Sequence record: KC295538
From: Escherichia phage PBECO4
Direction: 5' to 3' (one strand)
DNA length: 64,000 bases
Shown: positions 6,514 to 23,825 of the stretch, one piece after another
Position numbering within the stretch: the first letter of the stretch is position 1
Layout of the letters: each line of letters starts with the position of its first letter
Program-made: the position numbers and the translations under genes
The notes under the pieces: generated by a model
Databases searched by the model: none
What the model was told of the DNA's origin: nothing
What the model saw: only the letters and a program-made list of their open reading frames with translations

Positions 6514-6589
6514 TATGTTTCCCCTTGTAGTTAGTAAAGTTATTACATCAGTACTATCAAGCTATGTCAATAGTACTGAAATAAAACTT

Positions 6590-8210: not shown

Positions 8211-8218
8211 AATCTTTT

Positions 8219-8803: not shown

Positions 8804-8834
8804 TGCATGTTCTCCTTGAGTTAATGAAACTATC

Positions 8835-9134
8835 TTACAGTACTTTACTATCAATGGCAACTACTTTTTTTACACTAACCGCGTGAATCACTTCCTTAGT
8901 GTTTTTAGTACTGAATACTTTCGCCGTGCCTTGTTCTACTGCAATACGATAACGACCGTTAACATCAACCATATTAATAAAGTCCGGTGTACTAAACCGA
9001 GTAGTTTTACATTTCAGTACTGTTAACAGTTCCACCAGCGATGTGGTTTCTTTGATACGTTTTTCTAAAGTAATCATTTTGTTTTCCCCGTGTTGGTATG
9101 TACATATAGTACTAAAACATTTGAGTACTGTCAA
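8835..9134 (-). CDS. hypothetical protein
   Basis: Track ORF. Confidence 0.55.
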   Translation of the reverse strand: MTVLKCFSTICTYQHGENKMITLEKRIKETTSLVELLTVLKCKTTRFSTPDFINMVDVNGRYRIAVEQGTAKVFSTKNTKEVIHAVSVKKVVAIDSKVL

Positions 9135-9385
9135 CGTGATATTAGTTTTATTTTCTTATTATATTGTTGATGTTCATAAAGGTTTATCTTTCCTGTGTTC
9201 TCTATTACTATTCTGTTGTTAGTGTCTACATCGATTACACGCAGTTTTCCGTTGCTTAACTTCCTTGGTAATAGGTTACCATTAATAAACTCATTAGCAA
9301 GCTGTACGGCCTTTGTGATGATTCTCTGAGGTGCTTTATAGTGTACCCGCAAGATATTATCTTTAGATAGTTGTACCTTAATCAT
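9131..9385 (-). CDS. hypothetical protein
   Basis: Track ORF; 4-nt overlap with downstream gene. Confidence 0.55.
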   Translation of the reverse strand: MIKVQLSKDNILRVHYKAPQRIITKAVQLANEFINGNLLPRKLSNGKLRVIDVDTNNRIVIENTGKINLYEHQQYNKKIKLISR

Positions 9386-9400
9386 TTTAGTTTATCCTAT

Positions 9401-9425
9401 AAAAAAGGCGGGAACTGATCCCGCC
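9401..9425 (-). terminator. rho-independent terminator (minus strand)
   Basis: ggcgggaactgatcccgcc hairpin preceded on + by AAAAAA (U-run on minus), just 3' of gene 9448..9843. Confidence 0.6.
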
Positions 9426-9447
9426 GTGTTGTTAGTACTGCAAGTTA

Positions 9448-9843
9448 TTAGATAACCTGTCGGCGTTTACTATATACTGTTACACGATTACCCTTACGGT
9501 CGTGTCGGATCTCTTTCTGGTTGCGTACCAGTTCACTTGGACGCTTCAGGTTTGCCAGGTGATCCGCGTGAGTCCAAGCGGTATGGTTTGTCTGTACTTT
9601 GATATCAGAATCAGCGATAAACTCATCTTGTGCATCAAGTATTGACGCCAGTAAATCCGCTCGTTTTAGTTCTGCTGCTGTTAGTACTGGCTCCGGTGAA
9701 TTCACAATATCAGAGATCTCTTTGAACTGTACGGCCCAGCGTTGACCTTTCGGTGCATCTTTGCCCATGTCTTTAAATGTTTCGCCTTCCTCGCGTGCAA
9801 CAATACGGGCAGCTTCACGGGTAGCGTAGAATTTAGTAATCAT
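9448..9843 (-). CDS. hypothetical protein, paralog of 22341..22607
   Basis: Shared FATRE.ARI.AR..G.TFKDMG and DRKGNRVTVY segments. Confidence 0.6.
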   Translation of the reverse strand: MITKFYATREAARIVAREEGETFKDMGKDAPKGQRWAVQFKEISDIVNSPEPVLTAAELKRADLLASILDAQDEFIADSDIKVQTNHTAWTHADHLANLKRPSELVRNQKEIRHDRKGNRVTVYSKRRQVI

Positions 9844-9938
9844 GGTATACATCCTATTAGTTGAGTTAGTACTACAAGTTAGAGTCTATTATAAAGTACT
9901 ATCTGGGCAATGTCAAATAGTACTTTAAATGGATTCTA

Positions 9939-10262
9939 TTACATGTCTTTCTTACGTTTTACATCGTGGTAGCGAACTGTTATTTCTTTGTTGATCTCTT
10001 CCTCGATGCGGTGAATAACTGTTTCTTTCGGGTTGAAACCTATAACGGTTTCTTTAATGATCTCCAAGCCCGTGTATTCTCCTTGTGTACCGTAACCGTA
10101 AGTAAAGGTTTCATGTCCCAGGTCTTCCCAGCGGTCGCCAATTAACGCGGACACGTAGCAAGAGTGGTAAGTGTTACCGTTCCGATCAGTCCAGCGATTA
10201 ACTTTAATGTCAAAGGAGGTTACAATTTTCAGTTCTACTTTCTGGGTAAGGATCATAGCCAT
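9939..10262 (-). CDS. hypothetical protein, paralog of 16709..17032
   Basis: Shared RWTD..GNTYHSC.VS, FTYGY, C-terminal DVKRKKD. Confidence 0.6.
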   Translation of the reverse strand: MAMILTQKVELKIVTSFDIKVNRWTDRNGNTYHSCYVSALIGDRWEDLGHETFTYGYGTQGEYTGLEIIKETVIGFNPKETVIHRIEEEINKEITVRYHDVKRKKDM

Positions 10263-10352
10263 TTTTATTTCTCTCTCTCTTTGTTAGGAGGGGAACCGTT
10301 TCCCCTCGCTTGATGTAAACTATTATACAGTACTAAGATACTTTGTCAATAC
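10263..10352 (-). promoter_or_regulatory. sigma70-like promoter + 5' UTR hairpin
   Basis: tgtcaa/attata on +; hairpin gaggggaaccgtttcccctc. Confidence 0.6.
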
Positions 10353-10535
10353 TTATTTTTTGGAAAGTTTACGCATTAATTCTACGCTTTCTTGTGAACG
10401 TTTTGCTACCTGGCAATCTGTATGGGTAGTAAACATTTTTGTATAGTCTGACGGTTTGCCACCGAACCGAGCGGCACGCTCACGGGCACTTGGAACTAAT
10501 ACGATTTCTTTCTTACAGATAGTGCACTTAGCCAT
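10353..10535 (-). CDS. small Cys-containing protein (possible zinc ribbon)
   Basis: CTICKK...HTDC in 60 aa; own promoter+hairpin. Confidence 0.5.
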   Translation of the reverse strand: MAKCTICKKEIVLVPSARERAARFGGKPSDYTKMFTTHTDCQVAKRSQESVELMRKLSKK

Positions 10536-10620
10536 TTTTATTTCTCTCTCTTTGTTAGGAGGGGAACCATTCCCCCCTTGATGTAAACTATTATACAGTA
10601 CTAAGATACTTTGTCAATAC
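10536..10620 (-). promoter_or_regulatory. sigma70-like promoter + 5' UTR hairpin
   Basis: Near-identical copy of unit 10263..10352. Confidence 0.6.
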
Positions 10621-10896
10621 TTAATTATTGTAAATGCAGTGAATAGTGATAAAGTTTTTACGACCGTAAACCTGCAAATCAATATCAATGTAGTGCTTAT
10701 CAAGTACATCCTCGACGCTTAACGCGGTGTCGTGAATATCTTCGTAGAATTGAGGATCTACAATCTTGCTTAAGTCATCCGGCGTTAACTTATCGTTAAG
10801 CCATTGAACCGCCTGGATATCTGCTTCACGTTTCCAGTCTTCCAGGTTAGTAGTCAGTACTTGCTCGATTTCGTTAGCTGTCAGTAGAATCCGCAT
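10621..10896 (-). CDS. hypothetical protein
   Basis: Track ORF. Confidence 0.55.
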   Translation of the reverse strand: MRILLTANEIEQVLTTNLEDWKREADIQAVQWLNDKLTPDDLSKIVDPQFYEDIHDTALSVEDVLDKHYIDIDLQVYGRKNFITIHCIYNN

Positions 10897-11093
10897 TTTT
10901 ATGTTTCCTTATCAGTAGTTGATGTAAGTATTATACTCGTTTACTTTCTATTGTCAATCTTTTTTTATCAGGGGAGTTTTTCGTATGTCTTACTCCTGGA
11001 CTACTTAACGGGGTTACTTGTTTTGTTCCCCGTCCTGATGTAAAACATTATACTTGATTCTAAGTACAATGCAAGTACTTTTTAAAAATAGTT

Positions 11094-11258
11094 TTACTTA
11101 CTCATATTAACAGGCTTGAACGGTGGCAATGTAAGATCATGCGGGGTTAAACTATCATGCTTTGCCCACATACCGGAATCCCTACGGAATAATACCTTAT
11201 TGTTTTTTATACGATAAAAGTTACCATTATCAGTGTTTTTGTACCATATCATTTTCAT
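11094..11258 (-). CDS. hypothetical small protein (54 aa)
   Basis: Own translation MKMIWYKNTDNGNF..; GGAG SD; promoter motif upstream. Confidence 0.4.
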   Translation of the reverse strand: MKMIWYKNTDNGNFYRIKNNKVLFRRDSGMWAKHDSLTPHDLTLPPFKPVNMSK

Positions 11259-11398
11259 TTACTCCTGGTTATGTCGTTATTAAACATTATACGGGGTTAT
11301 AGATAGTTTTCAAGTATATTTCAGTACTAGCCACCAGCATATAATAGATACATTTATGCACCCTATGGGCTGATTTTTTTCTATGCGTATATAATAGC

Positions 11399-11430
11399 AA
11401 AGGGACTGACCGGAGTCAATCCCTTTTTTA
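11399..11430. terminator. TTGACT-containing hairpin element (copy 3)
   Basis: agggactgaccggagtcaatccctttttt. Confidence 0.5.
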
Positions 11431-11437
11431 ATTCTTT

Positions 11438-11587
11438 TTAAACTTCTTTCGGGTTGCGATATGTGATAGCGTTCGGGTACATTTGTTTAATGTTATTCCA
11501 TGCCTGGTTAACATTGTAACCACTTGAGCGAATCAGTTGGTTACTACCGACACCTTGAAACACTACTTCGAATAAGAATTCTTTCAT
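11438..11587 (-). CDS. hypothetical small protein (49 aa)
   Basis: Own translation MKEFLFEVVFQG..; ATGA overlap with upstream ORF. Confidence 0.4.
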   Translation of the reverse strand: MKEFLFEVVFQGVGSNQLIRSSGYNVNQAWNNIKQMYPNAITYRNPKEV

Positions 11588-11757
11588 GCTTTCACCTCGC
11601 TATCTGCTTTACCTTTACGCCAGGACATTACTAATTGTTCGCGTTGCCATAAATCGAGTGATACAAAAAGTTTTGCGGTATCACTTTTAGGATACTCGCC
11701 AGTAGTACCTAACCGATAAAACAGATCTTTCAGTACTGATAATTCTACTTGAATCAT
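11584..11757 (-). CDS. hypothetical small protein (57 aa)
   Basis: Own translation MIQVELSVLKDLFYRLG..; translationally coupled. Confidence 0.4.
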   Translation of the reverse strand: MIQVELSVLKDLFYRLGTTGEYPKSDTAKLFVSLDLWQREQLVMSWRKGKADSEVKA

Positions 11758-11863
11758 TTTATTACTCCTGATTGATTTAATACTTCTACTATTGCATGAA
11801 TGATCATAAGTACAGCTAAAACAATAATCATCGGATTCATTTGCATAAGCTGTACTCCTTCTA

Positions 11864-12076
11864 TTAATCTTTCAGCCAATGATCTTGAATGAATTTTTCA
11901 CAGAATCCCTGTTTCATGGATTCCAACAGGCGTTCGCGGTGAGCGTTTGCGAATTGCTCAGTACTATGCGTTACGCCAGGCTGATAACGTGATACCCCAT
12001 CCGGTCCGATGTATTGTACATCCCACGGTTTTTCGTTAGTATCAGACCATTTACGAACGATTAGTTGACCTTGCAT
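11864..12076 (-). CDS. hypothetical protein
   Basis: Track ORF; promoter+hairpin 12077..12159. Confidence 0.6.
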   Translation of the reverse strand: MQGQLIVRKWSDTNEKPWDVQYIGPDGVSRYQPGVTHSTEQFANAHRERLLESMKQGFCEKFIQDHWLKD

Positions 12077-12159
12077 TTTTCTTTCCTCTCAGTGGGGAGA
12101 ATCATTTCTCCCCTTCATGTAACTTATTATACAGTACTAGATTATCTTGTCAATAGTTT
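12077..12159 (-). promoter_or_regulatory. sigma70-like promoter + 5' UTR hairpin
   Basis: ggggagaatcatttctcccc hairpin; tgtcaa/attata. Confidence 0.6.
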
Positions 12160-12483
12160 TTATTCACCTTGTTTGAATTTAGTTTTCTCCATTGATTCCA
12201 TGATTGCAACCAATACGCCGTGGATCTCGCTTAACGCGGAATCACTGAAAGCATTAATGAATAGTCGATCATTCTCGCGAATATTTTTAATGTACTTTTC
12301 AGCAGTAGTTGCGAATTCATTCAACGGTAGATCAAATGCTTTATCCCATGATGGATGGCGTAATTGTAACAGTACTGGATTATCACGATCACCAGGGGAA
12401 AACGTACCAGTGATGAAACATACGCCCGGAATACTTTCGAACTGGCAACGGACTTCCTTTGTGATAGTAGTATGAATGTACAT
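12160..12483 (-). CDS. hypothetical protein
   Basis: Track ORF. Confidence 0.55.
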   Translation of the reverse strand: MYIHTTITKEVRCQFESIPGVCFITGTFSPGDRDNPVLLQLRHPSWDKAFDLPLNEFATTAEKYIKNIRENDRLFINAFSDSALSEIHGVLVAIMESMEKTKFKQGE

Positions 12484-12510
12484 TTATTGTTATCCTCTAT
12501 TAAATTAATA

Positions 12511-12705
12511 TTACAGTTTATGAATCAATTCTTTATCTAAGCGATAGCGTACATTATTAATAGTAACGGCATTGTTTTTAATGCTACGCTGTACAGGTCC
12601 ACCAGCAATAACAAATGTTGCTTTATTACCCCGAACAATGATAGCACTTCCAGGATTACCGAAATCATCTTGTACTAAAATACTTGATAAGTTTTCCATT
12701 TTCAT
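12511..12705 (-). CDS. hypothetical protein
   Basis: Track ORF; promoter+hairpin upstream. Confidence 0.55.
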   Translation of the reverse strand: MKMENLSSILVQDDFGNPGSAIIVRGNKATFVIAGGPVQRSIKNNAVTINNVRYRLDKELIHKL

Positions 12706-12780
12706 TTCCTCTTAGTAGGGGAAGATGTTTCCCCTTGATGTAAGTACTATAACACTACTGGATAGTACTGTCAATACTTT
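12706..12780 (-). promoter_or_regulatory. promoter + 5' UTR hairpin
   Basis: hairpin aggggaagatgtttcccct; tgtcaa -35. Confidence 0.5.
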
Positions 12781-13038
12781 TTATCTCATAGATCTATGCC
12801 AACAATTACGCGGGGGACGTTTAAAAGTACTATCATGATCCTCCTGGCAAGTTATGCAGTACTTACATCCCTTAACGGCCTGGCGTCGTTTCTCAGGGAT
12901 TATATCGCCGCAGTCGAGGCAATGTATCAGTGATTCTATTTGTGCGTTAATTTGCTTTCTAGCGTGGTTAACGGCGGCCTGAATCACTGCGTTAATCTCG
13001 TCTTGTTCGGCCCCATCTTTCGCGAATCCTACAGCCAT
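12781..13038 (-). CDS. TraR/DksA-family C4 zinc finger protein
   Basis: C-x2-C-G-x2-IP-x2-RR-x5-C-x2-C spacing (HCLDCGDIIPEKRRQAVKGCKYCITCQ) matches the DksA/TraR zinc finger. Confidence 0.6.
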   Translation of the reverse strand: MAVGFAKDGAEQDEINAVIQAAVNHARKQINAQIESLIHCLDCGDIIPEKRRQAVKGCKYCITCQEDHDSTFKRPPRNCWHRSMR

Positions 13039-13369
13039 TATTTTAACCTCATTATAAAAATACTATAGTACTGTAATGCGACAATAATATTACTTGTTCT
13101 TACTTTTTCCAATCCACATGATACCACATATTCATCCCCATATGTGCGGAACGATACACCATGAAAATTTTTATACACTTGCACTACTAATCATAACCTT
13201 TCGTCTAACCAACTGCATAGAATTATACTACTTTACGCAAATTGATCAAGTATTGATCAGATCATTTTTTGATCAATATTATACAGTTACATTTGTGCAC
13301 CCTATGGGTTAGTGACGTTCTCGTCTTGATGTAAGTATTATGCCAGTACTTGATGATATTGTCAATAGT

Positions 13370-13567
13370 TTATTTTAATTTTTTTCTGTCATTGATTAAT
13401 GCTTTCAGTACTATACTAATGATTTGCAATGATTCATCAATGACTATAAAATTATTCTCTTTCATTAGATGATAGTTACCATTGATTGTATATTCTAAGG
13501 AGTACTGTTTACGTTTAATTTTTGATAATGTTTCTATTTGTTTTTGTACTGATTTCATGCTAATCAT
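13370..13567 (-). CDS. hypothetical protein
   Basis: Track ORF. Confidence 0.5.
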   Translation of the reverse strand: MISMKSVQKQIETLSKIKRKQYSLEYTINGNYHLMKENNFIVIDESLQIISIVLKALINDRKKLK

Positions 13568-13672
13568 TGTTAAACGTCCTGTAACGCATTCTAACGAGAT
13601 AAACGGTTTAGTACTGGCATTGTATAGGGTAATGAATTAAAGCCCACCAGCGTTAACCAGTGGGCTATAATC

Positions 13673-13816
13673 TTACATCTTGCGGATAATCTTAACAGTA
13701 TCTTTCACCGATTTACCGTCTTGCTGGCATTGCTCGATCATTGCGTATTGTTCTGCTGTAAGATCCTCGCCAGTTTTTGCCAGTACTGCGTCGATGAATG
13801 AATCCAGTGCGATCAT
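13673..13816 (-). CDS. hypothetical small protein (47 aa)
   Basis: Own translation MIALDSFIDAVLAKTGEDL..; promoter-like region upstream. Confidence 0.4.
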   Translation of the reverse strand: MIALDSFIDAVLAKTGEDLTAEQYAMIEQCQQDGKSVKDTVKIIRKM

Positions 13817-13915
13817 TTTGTTTCTCTCTTAGGTTAAGTTAACTACTGTTTATAAAACTTATTATACAGTACTATCAAACGTTGTCAATATCTTTAATAG
13901 TACTGGTAATATATT

Positions 13916-14095
13916 TTAGCGGTAATCGTCGTATGCTTTATTCACCTGGCGAATGTAACTTTCAAAGGCTTCGTCTACCGTTTCATACTCCCGAACATAA
14001 TCACCATAGGAAACTACATACATACCTTTTTGATCTTCAAACGACATGATGATAGAATCCAGGCCGATGATTTCAGTTTTTGCGATGATAGCCAT
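13916..14095 (-). CDS. hypothetical protein
   Basis: Track ORF trimmed to ATG 14095 (MAIIAKTE..). Confidence 0.55.
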   Translation of the reverse strand: MAIIAKTEIIGLDSIIMSFEDQKGMYVVSYGDYVREYETVDEAFESYIRQVNKAYDDYR

Positions 14096-14178
14096 TTTTA
14101 ATTCCTTAGTAGTGTAGTTGATAAAAGTTATTATGCCAGTACTATCAATCAGTGTCAATAGTACTGTGATAATATTTT

Positions 14179-14391
14179 TTAGTTAATAATAGTCAGTGTA
14201 AAATTGTAATCCCCTGCCTGGTATAGTACTTTATCGCCGAACGTTCCAACACGTTTCATATTGCAATAGATACCCATAACACTTTTTACATCTTTGATAT
14301 TCCGAACGCCAGTAATATCCTTGTTTAAATGATCGTGATCAGAAAATAAAACTTGTTTTGCATTTTTCAGTACAGTGCAGATATTAGCCAT
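14179..14391 (-). CDS. hypothetical protein
   Basis: Track ORF; promoter+hairpin 14392..14485. Confidence 0.6.
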   Translation of the reverse strand: MANICTVLKNAKQVLFSDHDHLNKDITGVRNIKDVKSVMGIYCNMKRVGTFGDKVLYQAGDYNFTLTIIN

Positions 14392-14485
14392 TTTGTTTTC
14401 TCTCTGTTAGTGGGGAGAATCATTTCTCCCCTTCATGTAACTTATTATACAGTACTATAATCTATTGTCAAACTATTTTTTTATA
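14392..14485 (-). promoter_or_regulatory. sigma70-like promoter + 5' UTR hairpin
   Basis: ggggagaatcatttctcccc hairpin identical to that at 12077..12159. Confidence 0.6.
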
Positions 14486-14827
14486 TTATTCGAAATCTTC
14501 TGGACCGGACTGATAATCATCTTCACCGTATGCACTTTCTAACTTCTCGCCAGTGTGATCATCAGTTAGTGAATCATCCTCATAATTCACGTCTACGCCT
14601 ACAATGTAAAACTGGCTATCGTCTGGATCATTGAAATTAATTTTCTGAATGTTTACAATAACTGTATTGATGCCCAGGACACAGCCATCAGCCGTTACAA
14701 AGTACTGATAGTTTTCACAACCGCCTGAATTGAAACCGTAATTGATTTCGGCCCGACCATCATTTAAACGCAGTGCCTGGGCGATGATTTCGTTTTCAAA
14801 GTTAGATTGAGCAATTGAGATAGTCAT
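14486..14827 (-). CDS. hypothetical acidic protein
   Basis: Track ORF; D/E-rich C-terminus. Confidence 0.6.
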   Translation of the reverse strand: MTISIAQSNFENEIIAQALRLNDGRAEINYGFNSGGCENYQYFVTADGCVLGINTVIVNIQKINFNDPDDSQFYIVGVDVNYEDDSLTDDHTGEKLESAYGEDDYQSGPEDFE

Positions 14828-15019
14828 GATTCGTTTCCTTATTACTAGGGGAAACCGTTTCCCCTTTCGATGTAAAACATTATACGCTTATTGAGATAGT
14901 TTGCAAGTACTTTTTATCAAATACTTTAAAATAGTTTTCAGTACTCAAACATTATACAATAGATACACTCCTGCACCCTGTGGGCTAGTGAGCTATCTCT
15001 CAATGATTATATAATAACA

Positions 15020-15049
15020 AAATGGCTGACCGAAGTCAACCACTTTTTT
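15020..15049. terminator. TTGACT-containing hairpin element (copy 4, variant)
   Basis: aatggctgaccgaagtcaaccacttttttc. Confidence 0.45.
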
Positions 15050-15052
15050 CAT

Positions 15053-15187
15053 TTATTTTTTAGCTTTAAGTACTGCGGCCTTTCGTGTCATGCCTTGCTT
15101 GATGTATTCCTGTACTTTCGCTTTACGTGCTTTAGCTTTATCTGCTTTAGTTTTAGGAGTACTGTAAACTATACCGTTAGGATTCAT
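15053..15187 (-). CDS. hypothetical small basic protein (44 aa)
   Basis: Own translation MNPNGIVYSTPKTKADKAKARKAK.. Confidence 0.35.
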   Translation of the reverse strand: MNPNGIVYSTPKTKADKAKARKAKVQEYIKQGMTRKAAVLKAKK

Positions 15188-15273
15188 TTAAATCACCATA
15201 AAGAATAGATAGGTTACTAACAACGCCGCGATCAATGCACCGACCAGGGCCGAACTGTAATAAGCTAAGGATC

Positions 15274-15426
15274 TCATTTTTTAGCCTGAAAATAATGTTT
15301 AATTTGTGCGGCGGTCAGTGCACAATTACGCAGGAAGTTTTCTGTATAACTGCGGCGAGTATTAAAAGAGAATTGACCTTTACCGTTACCGATAGTTACA
15401 TCCATCCGAGCGTTGTATTGTTTCAT
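15274..15426 (-). CDS. hypothetical small protein
   Basis: Track ORF 15274..15456 trimmed to MKQYNARMDV.. Confidence 0.5.
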   Translation of the reverse strand: MKQYNARMDVTIGNGKGQFSFNTRRSYTENFLRNCALTAAQIKHYFQAKK

Positions 15427-15507
15427 TTTGTATCTCCTGTTATCGGGGAGAATCATTTCTCCCCTTCATGTAAAACATTATACAGTACTAAAAACTAATT
15501 GCAAGTA
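15427..15507 (-). promoter_or_regulatory. sigma70-like promoter (TTGCAA -35) + 5' UTR hairpin
   Basis: ggggagaatcatttctcccc; ttgcaagtatt on +. Confidence 0.6.
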
Positions 15508-15750
15508 TTATTTTAAACTTTGTGCGACTAATTTCGCACGGTCAATCATATACTGCCATTTTTGGATCTCTTCTGGCAGAAAACGATATTCACCAATAAC
15601 AATAGTGATACACTTTTCAGCTTGGTCAATGTATGTAGTATCAATCTCGACTTGAACGGGTACACGTTCGCCGTATTCAGTCCCTGGGATAATGCAATCA
15701 TTATCATAAGTTACAGTAGTAGTAGTGTCTTTGATTAAAATTGTTTCCAT
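15508..15750 (-). CDS. hypothetical protein
   Basis: Track ORF. Confidence 0.6.
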   Translation of the reverse strand: METILIKDTTTTVTYDNDCIIPGTEYGERVPVQVEIDTTYIDQAEKCITIVIGEYRFLPEEIQKWQYMIDRAKLVAQSLK

Positions 15751-15819
15751 TATACTTTCCTCGTTAGGTGTAAGGGGAACGTTTTCCCCTTCATGTAAAA
15801 CATTATACAGTACTGAAAA
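15751..15819 (-). promoter_or_regulatory. sigma70-like promoter + 5' UTR hairpin
   Basis: aggggaacgttttcccct hairpin. Confidence 0.55.
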
Positions 15820-16029
15820 CTAATTGCAAGTACTTTCCGAAAGTAAATGCTCATACGCTGCATTAACTACATTTTCAATAACCGACTGTACAGAAAGATC
15901 CCCCACGTCCTGGCTATAGTAGAAATTGCTTACAGTGGTGTCATCGTATGCAAATACTTTACCAGGTACTGCATCAATCACATACATATTAACCTTTAAG
16001 ATGTCGATCTTATCCTGTACAGTAAGCAT
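15820..16029 (-). CDS. hypothetical protein
   Basis: Track ORF. Confidence 0.55.
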   Translation of the reverse strand: MLTVQDKIDILKVNMYVIDAVPGKVFAYDDTTVSNFYYSQDVGDLSVQSVIENVVNAAYEHLLSESTCN

Positions 16030-16034
16030 ATTAA

Positions 16035-16307
16035 TTAACCTTTTAAGTACTGGCTTAAGTAGTCTTTTTGATCTTCGGTGATTGCAGTCATCTTCCCTAG
16101 TACTGGATTGATGATATAATCCCCTGTAACGTCCTGTAACGCATTCTCAGGCGGTTTAACGGCTGGGGTAGCCATAGCCATTGCCTGGACTTGTTCGACG
16201 CTGTAACGCTCATAAAGGCGGCATTCTTCCGGTGTTAACATAGCATCAGTACGCTTCATCGGTTTAATGATGCTTTCGATCTCATTCAGTACTTGATTAA
16301 CGTTCAT
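16035..16307 (-). CDS. hypothetical protein
   Basis: Track ORF. Confidence 0.55.
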   Translation of the reverse strand: MNVNQVLNEIESIIKPMKRTDAMLTPEECRLYERYSVEQVQAMAMATPAVKPPENALQDVTGDYIINPVLGKMTAITEDQKDYLSQYLKG

Positions 16308-16358
16308 GGTATAATCCCCAATATAAGCGGCCTAAATCGACCGCTAACGATGTTTTGA

Positions 16359-16628
16359 TTAATAGGTGTAAGGTTGACGCTCAAACAATGATTGTACGCT
16401 GTACGCCCCGCTAATGGGCTTCGCTGGCAAATCAATTTTATATTGTTCACGCTTAAAGATAATAAAACGGCAATTGTTTTTAACATCAAAATTGATTGAA
16501 CGTTCCAGGAGTTTTCCATCGTGCACAAATACAAGATAACCGCTTGGTACTTGTTTTGTAGAACTGGTTGCAACCATAGACCGACGAACATGTGTACCTG
16601 CATCGATTAAAGTACTGATATTTTTCAT
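16359..16628 (-). CDS. hypothetical protein
   Basis: Track ORF; preferred over overlapping 16304..16603 frame. Confidence 0.5.
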   Translation of the reverse strand: MKNISTLIDAGTHVRRSMVATSSTKQVPSGYLVFVHDGKLLERSINFDVKNNCRFIIFKREQYKIDLPAKPISGAYSVQSLFERQPYTY

Positions 16629-16708
16629 TTTACTATCCTCTTAAGTTGATTTAATTTCTTTCCCCTATGCAGACACTGTATCAAAGTATCTGCATAAAGT
16701 AAAGCTAA

Positions 16709-17032
16709 TTAAAGATCTTTTTTACGTTTTACATCCTGTACAGTACAATGCAACGGGATAGACAAATCATTACACAAACGAGTAAGGGAGGTTTCAACAG
16801 TATCAAGCCCGTCTACTGATTCCTTTAAGAGATCAAACGCCGTTTGTTGATATGCATCTTCATAGCCATAAGTAAATGATTCAACCGCCAGATCATTCAA
16901 ACCGTTATCCAGTTCAACGCTTACATGACAAGAATGATAAGTATTGCCATATGAATCAGTCCAACGTTTACCGTCAACATTGATTGCATGGATTGCAGCC
17001 AGGGAAACGGTATTGATGATAGTTTTAGCCAT
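16709..17032 (-). CDS. hypothetical protein, paralog of 9939..10262
   Basis: Shared RWTD.YGNTYHSCHVS, FTYGY, DVKRKKDL. Confidence 0.6.
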   Translation of the reverse strand: MAKTIINTVSLAAIHAINVDGKRWTDSYGNTYHSCHVSVELDNGLNDLAVESFTYGYEDAYQQTAFDLLKESVDGLDTVETSLTRLCNDLSIPLHCTVQDVKRKKDL

Positions 17033-17123
17033 TTTAGTATTCCTTAAATTAATATGTGTCGTCTTGATAAAATCTATTATGCCAGTACTATCAAACTATG
17101 TCAATAGTACTGTGATAATATTT

Positions 17124-17336
17124 TTACTTACTTTCTTTCGCTGCTTTATATGTTGCCACTGCCATAACCACATCAGCACGAACAAAGTTTTTAACCGTGT
17201 CACTGTAATAATTGATCGCATCATCTATATCTGCGAACGTCCGATACATACCGCACCAAGATACTTTATAACCTTCTTTCACTTCTGCCAGTTTAACGAT
17301 AGTCTTGTTAACTTTGATTTTAGTAATGATAGCCAT
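17124..17336 (-). CDS. hypothetical protein
   Basis: Track ORF trimmed to ATG 17336 (MAIITKIKV..). Confidence 0.55.
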   Translation of the reverse strand: MAIITKIKVNKTIVKLAEVKEGYKVSWCGMYRTFADIDDAINYYSDTVKNFVRADVVMAVATYKAAKESK

Positions 17337-17423
17337 TTTAGTTTCCTCATTATCAGGGAGAACCATTTCTCCCCTTGATGTAATGTATTATACTTTATTC
17401 GATTTACTTTGCAAGTACTTTTT
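17337..17423 (-). promoter_or_regulatory. sigma70-like promoter + 5' UTR hairpin
   Basis: gggagaaccatttctcccc hairpin. Confidence 0.55.
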
Positions 17424-17651
17424 TTAATTTAATTCATCCAGGCAAAGGATACGCTCAACGCCCAAATCAGTTAAACTAATCGACGGCACTTGATAGGTTT
17501 CAATGTATGCTACACTTGCCCACTGACCGAACTCATTAACGGCCCAGGTATTCATTGCATTTTGCAATTCCGCACCTGCCTTGTTAGTAATGACTGCAAC
17601 TACTTGTTCGTTGCCAGTAGTACCAGATACGCGAGTAATGATAATAGCCAT
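17424..17651 (-). CDS. hypothetical protein
   Basis: Track ORF trimmed to ATG 17651 (MAIIITRVSG..). Confidence 0.55.
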   Translation of the reverse strand: MAIIITRVSGTTGNEQVVAVITNKAGAELQNAMNTWAVNEFGQWASVAYIETYQVPSISLTDLGVERILCLDELN

Positions 17652-17888
17652 TGTTTTGATTCCTTTGATTTGGAAGGAGAACCGTTTCCCCCTCTCGATG
17701 TAAAACATTATACGCTAATCTCTTAATCGTGCAAGTACTTTTTATTACTTTTTGCAAAATACTTTAAACGCTCTCAATCGCATTCTAACGACCTTAACGC
17801 CACCAGCTAGGGCGATGTATCAGATAATCAGTTTAATGCGTTAGAATCGATTCTAGGCGGTGCTGGTGGACTGGAATACTACAGACAC

Positions 17889-17915
17889 AAAAAAGCCCAC
17901 TGTTTAAGGTGGGCT
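17889..17915 (-). terminator. rho-independent terminator (minus strand)
   Basis: agcccactgtttaaggtgggct hairpin with A-run on + (U-run on minus), 3' of gene 17937..18419. Confidence 0.6.
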
Positions 17916-17936
17916 AGTGATTCAGTACTTTAATTG

Positions 17937-18419
17937 TTATGCTTCAACTTTGCGATGAGCTTCGATCCATTCCTCGCGAGTCATACCGCTTTCTTTGATA
18001 GCGTCCAGTACTACCGCAATGCAGTTACCGCGTACAGGAATCATATGTTCTTCCCCGTTATCAAGTACTACAGTAACACGTTCTTGAATCCATTTTTTAG
18101 GTTTAGATTCTGGCTTATCTTCACCATACTTAACCGCCAGGGCTTTATGTGCCATTTCTACAACTACTTCCAGATCCAATCCAGCCACCGCCGCCTGGAT
18201 ACTTTCGATTGTTGCTTGCAGTTCGGCTTCACGGGCTTTTTTCTGTTCTTCCAGTTCTGCTACCTTTTTGGCTTGCAGTTCTTTAGCTTCACTGTACGCA
18301 ATGTTAAAATTGTTGCGTACTGCTTTCATGGTATCGTTATCCAGGTCAGCCAACAATTCAGCAGCAATAACAGTATCGTTTGAAATCAGTGCTTTCAGGA
18401 ATGATTTTACATTAGCCAT
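17937..18419 (-). CDS. hypothetical protein (predicted coiled-coil segment)
   Basis: Track ORF trimmed to MANVKSF..; central AKELQAKKVAELEEQKKAREAELQ heptad-like stretch. Confidence 0.6.
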   Translation of the reverse strand: MANVKSFLKALISNDTVIAAELLADLDNDTMKAVRNNFNIAYSEAKELQAKKVAELEEQKKAREAELQATIESIQAAVAGLDLEVVVEMAHKALAVKYGEDKPESKPKKWIQERVTVVLDNGEEHMIPVRGNCIAVVLDAIKESGMTREEWIEAHRKVEA

Positions 18420-18623
18420 TTTATAAATCCTCAATTAAAGTTTAGTTTACGTTTATTAGTGTATCAAAGTTTTATCGACGTGTCCAGTTTTTCGTTCGAC
18501 TTACTGGCGGTCTACTTAGTGCTCCCCGTCTTGATGTAATACATTCTACGCCTTTTTGTGGTAATGTCAACTACTATTTTAAAACTATTTTTAAAGTATG
18601 CAGTACTACGATAATACAAAAAC

Positions 18624-18650
18624 AAAAAAGCCCACTGTTTAAGGTGGGCT
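18624..18650 (-). terminator. rho-independent terminator (minus strand)
   Basis: Second copy of agcccactgtttaaggtgggct with A-run. Confidence 0.6.
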
Positions 18651-18667
18651 AGTGATTCAGTACTATA

Positions 18668-18967
18668 TTATAAACAGTTAATTACTCCGGTGTGCGTTAC
18701 TTTCTCAGTATCCATAACCGTGACCGATCCACGCTTAGTACTTACATCGTAATAAATTGTCGTGCTACCTTTTTCGTCTTCTTCATGGAACGGGCCGCTT
18801 TTAAATGCTTCTGGCTGGATCTCTAAATCCTTTAAAACAATCTCGCCAGTACTTTCATCTGTCATCGCAACAGTGCACTGAATGAATTTTTCACTACTTA
18901 CATCTAACGACGCATTAACAGCGAAAGAGGAAACAGATAAAGCCAGGGCGATGATTGCAATTTTCAT
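18668..18967 (-). CDS. small secreted protein (signal peptide)
   Basis: MKIAIIALALSVSSFAVNA N-terminus. Confidence 0.6.
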   Translation of the reverse strand: MKIAIIALALSVSSFAVNASLDVSSEKFIQCTVAMTDESTGEIVLKDLEIQPEAFKSGPFHEEDEKGSTTIYYDVSTKRGSVTVMDTEKVTHTGVINCL

Positions 18968-19051
18968 TTGATTATCCTTAGTTACCAGGGGGAACCGCTC
19001 CCCCGTGCGATGTAAAATATTGTACAGTACTAAAAACTAATTGCAAGTACT
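18968..19051 (-). promoter_or_regulatory. sigma70-like promoter + 5' UTR hairpin
   Basis: agggggaaccgctccccct hairpin. Confidence 0.55.
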
Positions 19052-19288
19052 TTATGATTTTTTATAAAACATTTCGGCAGTAATATTTTTACCCGTTGGT
19101 TGTACTTTATCCAGAATTTTTTGATGCCCTGGCCGTCCAAATGAATATGATCCGTAAACCGTAAACCAGTAGTTACCCTCAGTGTTTACATGTACAGCAC
19201 AATAGGGAACGCCCCGCGATTCATCACCAATAAAGTGTGATACCGTTCCCGTTACATTAGCAGACGTTGATTTGATTTGTTCAAGCAT
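19052..19288 (-). CDS. hypothetical protein
   Basis: Track ORF. Confidence 0.55.
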   Translation of the reverse strand: MLEQIKSTSANVTGTVSHFIGDESRGVPYCAVHVNTEGNYWFTVYGSYSFGRPGHQKILDKVQPTGKNITAEMFYKKS

Positions 19289-19397
19289 TTTCTTATTCCT
19301 TAGTTACCAGGGGGAACCGCTCCCCCTATGCAAAACATTATACGCGTTTAAAAACTAATAGCAAGTATTTTAATAAAAAGTATTTGAAAAATAATTG

Positions 19398-19426
19398 TTG
19401 ACAACTGCATCCAGTACTGGCATAAT
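19398..19426 (+). promoter_or_regulatory. + strand sigma70-like promoter (TTGACA-N17-CATAAT) driving a short noncoding transcript
   Basis: ttgaca 19398..19403, cataat 19421..19426; downstream box ctaacccaccgggtgc; no + strand ORF. Confidence 0.45.
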
Positions 19427-19500
19427 TACTACATCAAGACGAAACAGTCACTAACCCACCGGGTGCCGAGATCCGTCTATTAAATGATTCAGTACTTAAC

Positions 19501-19524
19501 AATAAAGGGGATCAATCGATCCCC
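19501..19524 (-). terminator. hairpin terminator (minus strand; may also stop the + strand transcript)
   Basis: ggggatcaatcgatcccc with flanking A/T runs immediately 3' of gene 19531..19752. Confidence 0.5.
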
Positions 19525-19530
19525 TATGTA

Positions 19531-19752
19531 TTACTTAGTAAGGTATAAACAGAAGTCACCTTTATTTGCTACGCCGCCAGTGTAACGCGATGAATAGTTA
19601 GAAACGTCCTGGACTTCTGCTATTACCAGTGTATCATCATTCAATTCGTCGCAGAAGCAAACGGCTGGATCTTTTACGCCGATCTTGTCGGCATGTTCCC
19701 GCATAGATTTAACCAGTGCTTCCAGTTGAGAAAGAGTAGTGATATTAGCCAT
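19531..19752 (-). CDS. hypothetical protein
   Basis: Track ORF trimmed to ATG 19752 (MANITTLSQ..). Confidence 0.55.
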   Translation of the reverse strand: MANITTLSQLEALVKSMREHADKIGVKDPAVCFCDELNDDTLVIAEVQDVSNYSSRYTGGVANKGDFCLYLTK

Positions 19753-19836
19753 TGTATTTTCCTCATTACCAGGGAGAACCATTTCTCCCCTCTATGTAAA
19801 CTATTATACAGTACTGAAAACTAATTGCAAGTACTT
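19753..19836 (-). promoter_or_regulatory. sigma70-like promoter + 5' UTR hairpin
   Basis: gggagaaccatttctcccc hairpin. Confidence 0.55.
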
Positions 19837-20025
19837 TTAATTAAATTCCATAAAATCATTCTCAACGTGCACAACAATTTGATTGTTTTTAAAGTCCGCA
19901 GCGAACTCGATGCAATCATAAACCGCTTTTTGTGTTACAATGCTATGAGTACCAATCGGATTAATAGGGGATTGAATTGTTTCAATCTCGTTCCCTTGCT
20001 CATTAACAATTAAAATATTAAACAT
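19837..20025 (-). CDS. hypothetical protein
   Basis: Track ORF. Confidence 0.5.
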   Translation of the reverse strand: MFNILIVNEQGNEIETIQSPINPIGTHSIVTQKAVYDCIEFAADFKNNQIVVHVENDFMEFN

Positions 20026-20081
20026 CGCTGTTACTCCTGGGTAGTGTTAACTCGATATAAAGTATTATACGCCTTTATTGC

Positions 20082-20324
20082 TTAGTGTCCAGTACTTTTT
20101 AAAACATATTCATAAACACTACGCACATCATTGATCATCGCCTGGCGGTTAGCAGGTAACGCACCAGGATCGCCACTATCCCAGGCATTGATAAAACTCC
20201 CCAAATCATGAAAGATTTTATTCTGTAAGCCGATTAACTGCAATTCTTTTTCTTCAAGCTCTTTGATACGGTCAATTAAAAGACTCATTAGATAATCCTC
20301 AGTACTTAATTGTAAGATCCGCAA
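20082..20324 (-). CDS. hypothetical protein
   Basis: Track ORF. Confidence 0.5.
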   Translation of the reverse strand: MRILQLSTEDYLMSLLIDRIKELEEKELQLIGLQNKIFHDLGSFINAWDSGDPGALPANRQAMINDVRSVYEYVLKSTGH

Positions 20325-20632
20325 CGGTTACAATAGTGCCCGTCTTCCTCGTCATCGTCAACGAATTGACCGACGAAATTATCTACTTTCTCTTTGAGAT
20401 TCTGATAATTGTTTTCAACTTCCTTTAGACGTTCCTGGTAGTATTCCAGGGCTTGCACATACGCCGCCTCAGCCGTTTTCGCTCTTAAGGCTAAATTCAT
20501 GCCACGCGTTTCATCGTACATCCAAAAGCCATCGGTGCACTCACTGATTGACAATGATTTGGTTAACACTTTATAGTCAATTACTTTGCTCATTAGATAA
20601 TCCTCAGTAAAGGCGGGAACCACACCCGCCAT
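20306..20632 (-). CDS. hypothetical protein
   Basis: Track ORF; C-terminal CNRC. Confidence 0.5.
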   Translation of the reverse strand: MAGVVPAFTEDYLMSKVIDYKVLTKSLSISECTDGFWMYDETRGMNLALRAKTAEAAYVQALEYYQERLKEVENNYQNLKEKVDNFVGQFVDDDEEDGHYCNRCGSYN

Positions 20633-20649
20633 TGATTCAGTACTGAATG

Positions 20650-20889
20650 TTACATTCCAACCATTGCAGCACGGATCGCCGTAGTGCTATACTTGAATCC
20701 GTCCGGTGTTGTAGTAGTACCGTTGGCTTTTAATCTGCGGTACATACATTGGGCCGCAATATCTTTAGTTTTACATTGTGCGATGCAACTTTGAGCAAGC
20801 CGATATAATGACTCACCGTTATTAATCCACAATGAAACATTCCAATGAGTTTTGTTTTTGTGCCCGTTGTAAGTTTTAGTAGTAGCCAT
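20650..20889 (-). CDS. hypothetical protein, paralog of 22698..22937
   Basis: Shared GHKNKTHWNVSLWINN..LYRLAQ and C-terminal TPDGFKYSTTAIRAAMVGM. Confidence 0.6.
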   Translation of the reverse strand: MATTKTYNGHKNKTHWNVSLWINNGESLYRLAQSCIAQCKTKDIAAQCMYRRLKANGTTTTPDGFKYSTTAIRAAMVGM

Positions 20890-20985
20890 TTTTAAATCCT
20901 CGTTTAATTGAGCGGGAGAACCATTCCCCCGCCTCGATATAAAGTATTATACGCTTTTAAACTTAGTTTGCAAGTACTTTTTAAA
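20890..20985 (-). promoter_or_regulatory. sigma70-like promoter + 5' UTR hairpin
   Basis: gcgggagaaccattcccccgc hairpin. Confidence 0.55.
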
Positions 20986-21597
20986 TTAATATGCGATTGA
21001 TTCTACTACGTCATCAATAACATTGAATTGATACTCGTTACCCTCGATCAGTGCCGTGATGTTCTCAGTAGTGAATTGATCCTCATATGCATTCTCTAAA
21101 TCACGGTACAACTTGCGGGACAATTCACGAATAGTATCAGTGAGTAGTTCCTCAAGCTCATTAACTAACGTTTCTTGTTTTGCGGTTAAATCAGTGTAAG
21201 CCGATTCAATGTACCCGCTTACAGTATTCTCATGCGAGTAGTGGGAGTGCGAACGCTTTACACTCATCGCCAAATCATCTTCATTCAGCAAGTGACGGAT
21301 TGAGCGATACTTAGTTAATGCTCTTACCTTGCGTAAAAACTTCACTGCGTCAACGTGGTCAGTACTGATTGATGCACCGTCACCCTGGGACCAAAAACCA
21401 CTGAATTGTATTTCAGCTTCATTAATGCCATATTCCGGTAGTACTGTTTCTTTATAGTATTCAATTTCACTTTCAGAAAAATAATTGTCGTTTGAGTTTT
21501 TTTCACGTTCCCGAACCAGTTCGATAGCTGACGTTTGTTGTTCTGCGTTCAATTCAGAAAAATCCATAACGAAAGTAGTAGTAGTGATAGTTTTCAT
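20986..21597 (-). CDS. hypothetical acidic protein (203 aa)
   Basis: Track ORF. Confidence 0.6.
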   Translation of the reverse strand: MKTITTTTFVMDFSELNAEQQTSAIELVREREKNSNDNYFSESEIEYYKETVLPEYGINEAEIQFSGFWSQGDGASISTDHVDAVKFLRKVRALTKYRSIRHLLNEDDLAMSVKRSHSHYSHENTVSGYIESAYTDLTAKQETLVNELEELLTDTIRELSRKLYRDLENAYEDQFTTENITALIEGNEYQFNVIDDVVESIAY

Positions 21598-21819
21598 TTT
21601 GTAACCCTCATTCAGTAGTTGATGTAAGTATTATACGCTTTTAAAAACATTTGTCAAACTATTTTATCAGGGGAGTTTTTCGTGTGCCTTACTCCTGGGC
21701 TACTTAACGGGAAGTTACTTATTTCGTTCCCCGTCCTGATGTAAAACATTATACGCCTTTAAACATAGTTTGCAAGTACTTTTTAAAAATAGTTTTCAGT
21801 ACTGAATATTAAAAAAGTA

Positions 21820-21848
21820 TTGACAGCATTATCAAGTACTGGCATAAT
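21820..21848 (+). promoter_or_regulatory. + strand sigma70-like promoter (TTGACA-N17-CATAAT) driving a short noncoding transcript
   Basis: ttgaca 21820..21825, cataat 21843..21848; downstream ctaacccaccgggtgc box then atagatacactcccgcaccctatgggct box. Confidence 0.45.
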
Positions 21849-22022
21849 ATACCACATGACAACAGCTAACCCACCGGGTGCACAATTGTAACTATACTAA
21901 ACTAATTTTTCTATAGATACACTCCCGCACCCTATGGGCTACGGCTTATCTGCCAATGAATACATTATGCCAGTACTGACAAAATAAGTCAATACCGGCA
22001 ATTGTAAAGATTTGTAAACTAC

Positions 22023-22253
22023 TTATACTGCAATCGCGTCCAGGCTATAATAATAATAAGTGCCGTATTGGTGTACTTTATTACCTTTTATTTCAGTACT
22101 GAATGAATCCGAACGATTTGCATATGATGTTAATTTAAAGTACTTTGATTTGCTGATACGTTGCCATACACCACAGATCCGCTGTAAGTAAGTAGTTTTA
22201 TTCGTGGTAGTATCTTTTACGGTTTTAACTTCAGTCATATACATATTAGTCAT
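22023..22253 (-). CDS. hypothetical protein
   Basis: Track ORF. Confidence 0.55.
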   Translation of the reverse strand: MTNMYMTEVKTVKDTTTNKTTYLQRICGVWQRISKSKYFKLTSYANRSDSFSTEIKGNKVHQYGTYYYYSLDAIAV

Positions 22254-22340
22254 TTTTATTACTCCAGGTTATAGGCGGGAAGAGTTCCCGCTCTCGATGT
22301 AAAACATTATACGCCTTTAAACATAGTTTGCAAGTACTTT
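22254..22340 (-). promoter_or_regulatory. sigma70-like promoter + 5' UTR hairpin
   Basis: gcgggaagagttcccgc hairpin. Confidence 0.55.
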
Positions 22341-22607
22341 TTATTCAAGTACTGCAATCTTTTTAGTACGGTACACGGTCACGCGGTTGCCCTTTCGGTC
22401 GAGCTTTATTTCTACCACTCGACGCGATACACTATCGGGACTTTTTAAGGCCGCTAACCAGTACTGTAATGATCTGGCTGTACTACGCTTTACAATGGCC
22501 CAACGTTTACCACGTTCCGATTGTACGCCCATATCTTTAAACGTTGCCCCGTCCTGGCGTGCGGCGATCCGAGCTTGTTCACGCGTCGCAAAATACTTAA
22601 TATTCAT
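22341..22607 (-). CDS. hypothetical protein, paralog of 9448..9843
   Basis: Trimmed to ATG 22607 (MNIKYFATREQARIAARQDGATFKDMG..). Confidence 0.6.
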   Translation of the reverse strand: MNIKYFATREQARIAARQDGATFKDMGVQSERGKRWAIVKRSTARSLQYWLAALKSPDSVSRRVVEIKLDRKGNRVTVYRTKKIAVLE

Positions 22608-22697
22608 GCTGTTGCCCTTATCGTTGGTGTATGAATAAAACACTATTATAAAGTACTATCGCAAAAAATGATAGTACTTTAAATAAATTCTATTCTA

Positions 22698-22937
22698 TTA
22701 CATTCCAACCATCGCCGCACGGATCGCAGTAGTGCTATACTTAAAGCCGTCCGGTGTTTTATCTTGTCCAGTCTGTTCTAAAAATAGCATCATATGACGG
22801 GCCGCATCATTACGATTAGTATTGGCGGCAATAAAGTCCTGGGCCAACCGATACAATCCCTCATCGTTATTAATCCAAAGGCTTACATTCCAATGAGTTT
22901 TGTTTTTGTGACCTAAGAACATTTTTGATTTAGCCAT
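22698..22937 (-). CDS. hypothetical protein, paralog of 20650..20889
   Basis: Trimmed to ATG 22937 (MAKSKMFLGHKNKTHWN..). Confidence 0.6.
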   Translation of the reverse strand: MAKSKMFLGHKNKTHWNVSLWINNDEGLYRLAQDFIAANTNRNDAARHMMLFLEQTGQDKTPDGFKYSTTAIRAAMVGM

Positions 22938-23019
22938 TTTTTTAATCCTCTTATATAGTGGGGAACTATTCCCCACCTGATGTAAAGTATTATACGCTTT
23001 TAAATTTAGTTTGCAAGTA
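22938..23019 (-). promoter_or_regulatory. sigma70-like promoter + 5' UTR hairpin
   Basis: gtggggaactattccccac hairpin. Confidence 0.55.
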
Positions 23020-23253
23020 CTATTTTTTCAGTACTGGTAAACCTTTGATCTCACCTGGCTGTACTTCCTCAAAGGCGACCGCCATCATACGGCTATCATC
23101 TTCCTTACATTCTTCCATCGCATCACAAAAATGATTAATAACGTCCGGTGCAACGTCAACCACATCAAACAAGCCAACCTCAGTGCAACGGCTTAAAGCG
23201 TTTAATAGGTCAGTCAGTGCAACGGATTGAGAAACAGTTAAAATAGTACTCAT
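23020..23253 (-). CDS. hypothetical acidic protein
   Basis: Track ORF. Confidence 0.55.
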   Translation of the reverse strand: MSTILTVSQSVALTDLLNALSRCTEVGLFDVVDVAPDVINHFCDAMEECKEDDSRMMAVAFEEVQPGEIKGLPVLKK

Positions 23254-23347
23254 ACAATTAATCTCTTAATTATAGTGGGGAACTATTCCCCACCTGATGT
23301 AAAACATTATACGCTTTTAAACTTAGTTTGCAAGTACTTTATTAAAC
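23254..23347 (-). promoter_or_regulatory. sigma70-like promoter + 5' UTR hairpin
   Basis: Same hairpin as 22938..23019. Confidence 0.55.
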
Positions 23348-23710: not shown

Positions 23711-23800
23711 CGTTTTAATCTCTCTTAAAGTGTAGCGGGAACACTTCCCGCTCTCGATGTAAAACATTATACGCTTTTATCAGTACGGTGCAAGTACTTT
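23711..23800 (-). promoter_or_regulatory. sigma70-like promoter + 5' UTR hairpin (last unit before noncoding hub)
   Basis: gcgggaacacttcccgc hairpin. Confidence 0.55.
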
Positions 23801-23825
23801 CTACAAATACTTTTAAAATAGTTTT

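Follow-up and report, generated by a model that had tools for sequence, protein, structure and literature searches.

The 64,000-nucleotide stretch of the Escherichia phage PBECO4 genome analyzed here (sequence record KC295538; hereafter the window) carries three pairs of small, related genes dispersed through an early region that has about one promoter per gene. We confirmed all six open reading frames (ORFs) on the minus strand, where the promoters and hairpins described below also lie. Pair 1 consists of P1a (9939..10262) and P1b (16709..17032), each encoding 107 amino acids (aa). Pair 2 consists of P2a (9448..9843; 131 aa) and P2b (22341..22607; 88 aa), the latter a short copy, and pair 3 of P3a (20650..20889) and P3b (22698..22937), each of 79 aa, with P3b the ortholog of 121Q gp267. 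The window belongs to an Asteriusvirus, a jumbo coliphage like 121Q, G17, and BF17; its megablast matches to BF17, WPEC5, JP4, fEgEco12, G17, and 121Q are patchy and 89–98% identical, and genes of matching length to all six are annotated in G17, 121Q, BF17, and fEgEco12. The ends of the fEgEco12 genome were determined physically, giving a direct terminal repeat (DTR) of 20,993 bp (PMC13070987). Position 1 of fEgEco12 maps to window position 25,442 and the inner end of its DTR to approximately 4,470, so that the DTR equivalent (4470..25442) encloses all six genes, with P3b and P2b the second and third genes counted from the physical left genome end. Because the region falls in this long repeat, each of its genes is counted twice as often in records of 370–384 kb as in 350-kb records.

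An earlier note, made from the sequence alone, had stated that the three pairs are related and had quoted motifs common to their members, and both statements hold. In BLASTP alignments, pair 1 is identical at 40 of 107 positions (37%) over its full length without gaps (E = 3e-27). Pair 2, compared over 9448-9852 and 22341-22643, is 35% identical (E = 2e-19) with a single 45-residue gap, which is a central linker carried by the longer copy. Pair 3, compared over 20650-20889 and 22698-22976, is identical at 52 of 79 positions (66%; E = 3e-37). The motifs RWTD..GNTYHSC.VS, FTYGY, and DVKRKKD are present in pair 1, ATRE.ARI.AR, TFKDMG, and DRKGNRVTVY in pair 2, and GHKNKTHWNVSLWINN and TPDGFKYSTTAIRAAMVGM in pair 3. 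Each pair belongs to one PHROG (6246, 8127, and 871 for pairs 1, 2, and 3, respectively), which its members match with E-values of 3.9e-26 to 7.2e-40. The two P3 proteins also match Pfam family DUF7249 (PF23907) at 52.6 and 47.8 bits (E = 9.8e-14 and 3.1e-12), above the curated gathering threshold of 27 bits. A sensitive all-versus-all comparison among the 43 genes at 8.2–23.7 kb returned these three pairs as the only significant ones; extra pairs suspected by eye, such as 13916-14098 with 17124-17336, were not significant.

Short genes in an AT-rich and repeat-rich region invite the suspicion that the similarity reflects chance, low complexity, spurious ORFs, or an assembly artifact that duplicated part of the terminal repeat. 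We give this reading practically no credence: it is refuted by E-values of 1e-19 to 1e-37 over the full length of the proteins, by the PHROG and Pfam matches, by dN/dS values among orthologs that are well under 1, and by the divergence of the copies, which are 35–66% identical where an assembly duplicate would be near-identical. Specifically, Nei-Gojobori dN/dS of the six genes against their orthologs in G17, BF17, and 121Q, a check proposed with the original observation, ranged from 0.04 to 0.52 (0.06–0.25 for P1a), indicating that all six are functional coding genes under purifying selection. Between the paralogs, synonymous sites are saturated in pairs 1 and 2 (pS of 0.77 and 0.88, respectively), and dS between P3a and P3b is 0.89.

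Searches of Pfam, NCBIfam, and Protein Data Bank (PDB) sequences returned nothing for the P1 and P2 proteins and DUF7249 alone for P3, a family of which we found 711 homologs (PHROG 871 / DUF7249) and which has no known function. An AlphaFold2 (AF2) model of P3b (pLDDT 87, four helices) had no significant structural neighbor, and the predicted fold of P2a, comprising an N-terminal beta-alpha-beta-beta module, a helical linker, and a C-terminal beta-hairpin, had no significant structural match. The position of the genes in the early terminal repeat suggests, as a conjecture, that the six proteins serve host takeover or counter host defenses.

The region around these genes is built from repeated regulatory units. 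Between approximately 3.9 and 25.2 kb, that is, to slightly past the DTR equivalent, about 40 minus-strand promoters of sigma70 consensus form (TTGCAA or TTGACA, 16–17 nt, TATAAT) recur in intergenic spacers, and the exact TTGCAA..TATAAT combination occurs 10 times against 0.26 expected. A hairpin formed by a G-run and a C-run (−10 to −16 kcal/mol), followed by a Shine-Dalgarno (SD) sequence and ATG, accompanies 24 of these promoters, a count of those that passed our filter (−10 kcal/mol or stronger, starting 10–13 nt after the −10 element) in a scan that missed a few units with variant −35 hexamers. Stem sequences vary among units while pairing is maintained. Since RNAalifold, run on a sequence-only alignment, caught only five pairs, with the stems out of register, this structural claim rests on individual folds. 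The same architecture of promoter and hairpin is found in EJP2, in RaK2, and in Phapecoctavirus, a genus of the Stephanstirmvirinae unrelated to Asteriusvirus, in which 12 units occupy 8.2 kb and some hairpins are near-identical. We rejected the possibility that this main class of hairpin is an intrinsic terminator because it has no U-run; true terminators occur elsewhere, one of them upstream of 9131-9385, where GGCGGGATCAGTTCCCGCC precedes TTTTTT. In RNA, the main-class hairpin may act as a 5′ stabilizer, an insulator, or a processing site.

A second repeated unit was also observed, of the form TTGACT(T/C)CGGTCAG(C/T)C-T-run-TAT(A/T)AT, in which a short hairpin and a T-run lie between the −35 and −10 elements. 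It occurs at 5915-5943, 8172-8200, 11391-11419, and 15011-15039, with six more sites between 46 and 59 kb, and is a putative composite of terminator and promoter.

That each of the six copies has its own promoter-hairpin unit, as the earlier note put it, proved true in part. A sigma70-like −10 element lies upstream of every one of them, but a stable 5′ hairpin is present at P1a, P3a, and P3b only (−14.5, −15.7, and −15.4 kcal/mol; z scores of −2.3 to −2.9), and P1b, P2a, and P2b have no G/C hairpin. The P1a unit (10263..10349) comprises TTGACA-17 nt-TATAAT (10349-10322), the GAGGGGAAACGGTTCCCCTC hairpin (z = −2.5), and an SD sequence. The P1b promoter (17033..17104) reads TTGACA-17 nt-CATAAT, is of another type than that of P1a, and shares its type (family D20) with the unrelated gene 13916-14098. 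The P2a promoter, TTGACA...TATAAT (9916-9888, within 9844..9926), sits between the arms of an inverted repeat, AGTACTAT/ATAGTACT. Upstream of P2b (22608..22700), TATAAT at 22650-22645 is accompanied by the inverted repeat AGTACTATC/GATAGTACT, and the −35 element is not recognizable. The P3a unit (20890..20973) consists of TTGCAA-16 nt-TATAAT (20973-20946) and the hairpin GGCGGGGGAATGGTTCTCCCGC, and the P3b unit (22938..23016) of TTGCAA-16 nt-TATAAT (23016-22989) and the hairpin GTGGGGAATAGTTCCCCAC.

The simplest origin for such pairs, and the one the earlier note favored, is duplication with divergence within the region: a gene and its promoter-hairpin unit would have been copied to a second site in an ancestor, and the copies would then have diverged in place. 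Pair 2 fits this account. Every Asteriusvirus locus examined (G17, BF17, 121Q, phAPEC6, and EJP2) has both P2 copies, in syntenic positions, whereas RaK2, K64-1, Hallingskeid, and Munch carry a single copy, the pattern expected of in-paralogs. The N-terminal 38 residues of RaK2 ORF353 are almost identical to P2a, and the next gene, ORF354, is homologous to window gene 9131-9385, the downstream neighbor of P2a, identifying P2a as the positional ortholog and P2b as the added copy. P2b lacks the variable central linker and retains the conserved N-terminal (approximately 43 residues) and C-terminal (approximately 35 residues) modules. The upstream regions of P2a and P2b are homologous as far back as the stop codon of the preceding gene (ATGTAATAGAAT). 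Together with the saturated synonymous sites, these features fit an ancient duplication that included the promoter and is older than the genus.

The two P2 loci did not then evolve in isolation. In the divergent Asteriusvirus EJP2, EJP2_516 occupies the P2b position, downstream of a P3 gene and with the same promoter, and is a chimera whose leader and N-terminal two thirds are P2a-like and whose C-terminus is P2b-like, which indicates exchange between the two loci. P1a, the gene preceding P2a, ends in ...DM* (ATGTAATAGAAT), as at the P3b-P2b junction, and other P1 genes end in ...DL*; on the sequence, this ending suggests that exchange between P2 loci reached into the preceding gene. We also observed that P2 copies always lie directly downstream of a P1 or P3 gene in the window and in EJP2, and that the families tend to adjoin one another (9448-10262 and 22341-22937 in the window; 6026-6721 in locus L006, 4944-5654 in L007, and 3546-4240 in L002).

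Pair 3 behaved differently under the same synteny comparison with related phages. All relatives examined have P3b. P3a occurs in BF17 and phAPEC6 and, by tblastn (95–99% identity, records with two or more copies of the family), in WPEC5, SD-15_S21, and EC22.5-2; 121Q, G17, and fEgEco12 lack it, and unrelated genes fill its slot there, downstream of a 612-nt gene. The two P3 proteins are 66% identical to each other, while P3a is 90% identical to a protein of the Phapecoctavirus vB_EcoM_118_SA_NWU (NWU118) and P3b is 94% identical to one of the Phapecoctavirus ESCO13. At the DNA level, the match of P3a to NWU118 is 92.1% over exactly the 240-nt coding sequence, and its dS to NWU118 (0.19) is lower than that to its genus-mate BF17 (0.28). 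NWU118 and ESCO13 carry the a-type in one and the b-type in the other at the same slot between near-identical flanks. The NWU118 gene is in turn mosaic, being b-like over its first ~40 nt and a-like over the remainder. A neighbor-joining tree of the family resolves two allele clades, each mixing both genera. In-paralogs would be each other's closest relatives, whereas here each copy is closer to a gene of the other genus, and these relationships argue that P3a and P3b are alleles from a shared pool placed at two loci, not recent duplicates within one genome. The nearly identical promoters of P3a and P3b could be taken to favor duplication, but this promoter type is common to several unrelated neighboring genes and is therefore uninformative on co-duplication. 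The 8.2-kb Phapecoctavirus locus contains DNA-level matches to at least six genes of the window, and their order there differs.

The second slot of pair 1 is likewise polymorphic. P1a was found in every Asteriusvirus locus examined, with orthologs 92–98% identical in G17, BF17, 121Q, and phAPEC6. P1b was found in G17, BF17, and 121Q, and several genomes give only one match to the pair. Between flanks identical to those of P1b, phAPEC6 instead encodes gp525c, a 114-aa member of the P1 family of Phapecoctavirus type that is 78% identical at the nucleotide level to the NWU118 gene, an allele at odds with the expectation for in-paralogs. Divergence in this slot starts in the 5′ leader, right after the promoter, and stops where the conserved DVKRKKDL codons are reached. 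In Phapecoctavirus, the next gene upstream of the P3-family member is that of the P1 family.

Simple duplication is thus contradicted for pairs 1 and 3 by slot polymorphism and by nearest neighbors in another genus, to which the differing promoter types of P1a and P1b can be added, and we consider it an unlikely account of the three pairs despite its fit to pair 2. Synteny, the other check the note had proposed, divides the pairs in the same way, with the copies of pair 2 in register throughout Asteriusvirus and the second copies of pairs 1 and 3 in polymorphic slots. The further suggestion of modular gene gain was borne out, as single genes are gained, lost, and replaced among relatives.

The junctions of these changes lie at or beside the units. 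What distinguishes the window from G17, BF17, and 121Q is the insertion, deletion, or replacement of single-gene cassettes of approximately 190–510 nt. Comparison with these three genomes gave 44 synteny breakpoints, of which 36 are no more than 15 nt from an intergenic spacer, against an expectation of 37%; the genomes share a common history and the breakpoints are not independent, so the p-value is indicative only. Within 20620..23258, we read the junctions from explicit alignments. At the P3a slot, the alignment of four genomes holds through a common upstream hairpin, breaks down at the 3′ edge of that hairpin, and resumes at the next one; in the window, the P3a unit forms the left junction of this replaceable cassette and a promoterless hairpin 3′ of P3a, GGCGGGTGTGGTTCCCGCC (20612..20630), forms the right. 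Genomes differ as to which side of the cassette carries the promoter, and the gene that fills the P3a slot in 121Q is window gene 19052-19288. G17 lacks gene 23020-23253, whose flanking units are 86% identical over 88 nt.

We conclude that the three pairs are true homologs that probably owe their arrangement to cassette shuffling, not to simple local duplication. Under this explanation, the conserved promoter and hairpin units and the conserved gene ends would supply short stretches of homology, and recombination at these sites, within a genome or between co-infecting phages, would insert, delete, relocate, or replace single genes. Pair 2 would be an old duplication that carried its promoter, predated the genus, and was followed by sequence exchange between the loci. 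In pairs 1 and 3, one copy is stable and the other sits in a slot, a probable hot spot, that holds variable alleles or unrelated genes in sister phages. Alleles at such slots are common to Asteriusvirus and Phapecoctavirus, the two copies in one genome being alleles from an early-gene pool of E. coli myoviruses. The polymorphic slots of P1b and P3a and their nearest relatives in Phapecoctavirus point to separate acquisition or allelic exchange in place of duplication in situ.

Several points weigh against this conclusion. Recombination at the units is deduced from genome comparisons in this lineage, and junctions drawn from BLAST or other alignments cannot be placed exactly inside repeated units. 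The history that the breakpoints share across the three genomes inflates the binomial p-value, and the neighbor-joining trees comprise 10–11 short sequences with no bootstrap support. Transfer between the genera could have run in either direction. For pairs 1 and 3, the gene could also have been duplicated long ago and both lineages then spread widely by horizontal transfer, as all homologs ultimately share an ancestor. Finally, three of the six genes lack a hairpin. The exchanges therefore do not depend on it, and conserved coding ends also serve as crossover sites.

Two extensions of cassette shuffling can be offered at lower confidence. It is conceivable, though we lean against it, that the units are a common currency of exchange among unrelated E. 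coli myovirus lineages (Asteriusvirus, Phapecoctavirus, and probably rV5-like phages), with hairpins as preferred crossovers, early alleles crossing genera, perhaps by way of excised circles of a gene plus its unit, and two alleles kept for specificity. A rather more speculative reading, compatible with cassette shuffling, concerns selection: each family would target a variable component of the host or its defenses, and second copies would be kept because two alleles of differing specificity broaden the range. Consistent with such a role, all six genes are under purifying selection and lie in the early terminal-repeat region, the differences between P3 proteins are concentrated in residues ~25–60 between invariant ends, and the a and b alleles stay discrete types across two genera. 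Set against it, our searches found no function, target, or structural homolog, and one P3 copy suffices in many sister phages.

Whatever maintains the second copies, alleles of small early genes circulate between unrelated coliphage genera, as seen at the DNA level, and ‘paralogs’ annotated in regions of this kind should not be taken for products of local duplication. Phage biology and therapy gain candidates for host-range or anti-defense functions in the polymorphic slots and in the P1, P2, and P3 (DUF7249) families.

Other features of the window were noted in passing. The palindrome AGTACT is by far its most over-represented hexamer, with 266 occurrences against 22 expected (12-fold), a count reached in 0 of 100 shuffles. 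All sites lie within 4598-64000; there are none in 1-4597, and none in the tandem array of genes that borders the terminal repeat on its outer side. Spacers hold 11.4 sites per kb and coding sequence 3.4 per kb, the latter in all three frames. Densities are similar in G17, BF17, 121Q, EJP2, and RaK2, and Phapecoctavirus has 0–1 sites per 8 kb. P1a, P1b, P3a, and P3b, whose families are common to Phapecoctavirus, contain none against approximately 4 expected. AGTACT looks like a lineage-wide signal at the DNA level and a candidate protein-binding site or modification target.

At least approximately nine degenerate 8-nt tandem repeats (CGTCTAGC/CATCCAGC...) lie at 24540-24691, about 750–900 nt inside the left-end position of 25,442 and in a ~1.7-kb stretch that has no annotated genes in relatives; they may be linked to the terminus or to packaging. 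Three large tandem arrays of paralogs are a matter separate from the three pairs: ~15 genes of ~70 aa at 166-3883 (minus strand), ~12 genes of ~60 aa at 25706-29327 (minus strand), and ~10 genes of ~400 aa at 29841-42100 (plus strand), the last corresponding to 121Q genes annotated as RCC1-like ‘putative DNA condensation protein’. Among neighboring minus-strand genes, the fEgEco12 counterpart of 18668-18967 (99 aa, with an N-terminus resembling a signal peptide) is annotated as ‘protein spackle’ and that of 8219-8806 as a serine/threonine kinase, both putative assignments.

The closest known parallel is the promoter-early stem-loop (PeSL) cassette of T4-like phages, in which a strong early promoter is combined with a polyG/polyC stem-loop, the junctions of insertions and deletions fall at the units, and mini-circles are intermediates (Arbiol, Comeau & Krisch 2010, PMC2839356; Comeau et al. 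2014, PMC4122927). In RB49 and phi1, the PeSL stem-loop usually lies between the −35 and −10 elements or overlaps the −10 and acts as a terminator (PMC2839356). The window shares with these cassettes sigma70-consensus early promoters and a stem-loop of G- and C-runs repeated in the spacers of small ORFan genes within a hyperplastic region, as well as single-gene insertions, deletions, and replacements that distinguish close relatives and whose junctions fall at or next to the units. It differs in that the main-class stem-loop lies downstream of the −10, in a 5′ leader predicted to be transcribed, and has no U-run; the classical layout, with the stem between −35 and −10, occurs here only in the minor TTGACTTCGGTCAGCC-T-run-TATAAT class and in the P2 promoters. 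The setting here is a direct terminal repeat, in the lineage of RaK2-like jumbo phages (Asteriusvirus) instead of T4-like phages. An unrelated genus has units built in the same way, although none of the inter-genus cases had a crossover mapped within a unit. Judged by sequence features, membership in the PeSL class would be partial: promoter, stem-loop, location among ORFan genes, and junctions agree, and the placement of the stem-loop between −35 and −10 and the T4-like lineage do not.

In the literature on RaK2-like and Asteriusvirus phages, we found no description of the units, the paralogs, or the AGTACT excess, and PeSL-type shuffling apparently has not yet been described for this lineage. 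Shuffling of this style, so far documented in T4-like phages, would extend to the terminal-repeat early region of a RaK2-like jumbo phage. In phage T5, likewise, the genome ends in a long direct terminal repeat that holds many small pre-early genes for host takeover, with host-type promoters. The likeness to the T5 pre-early region is one of layout. At the internal-protein (IP) locus of T4, related phages swap alternative small genes, with a proposed effect on host range (Repoila et al. 1994, as cited in PMC4122927). Exchange of alternative small genes at one locus between related phages is common to both cases; the genes and the lineage differ, and exchange in the region studied here also crosses genera. 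What is seen here adds an instance to a known evolutionary mode and is no new kind of system; the inter-genus exchange of alleles makes it modestly interesting.

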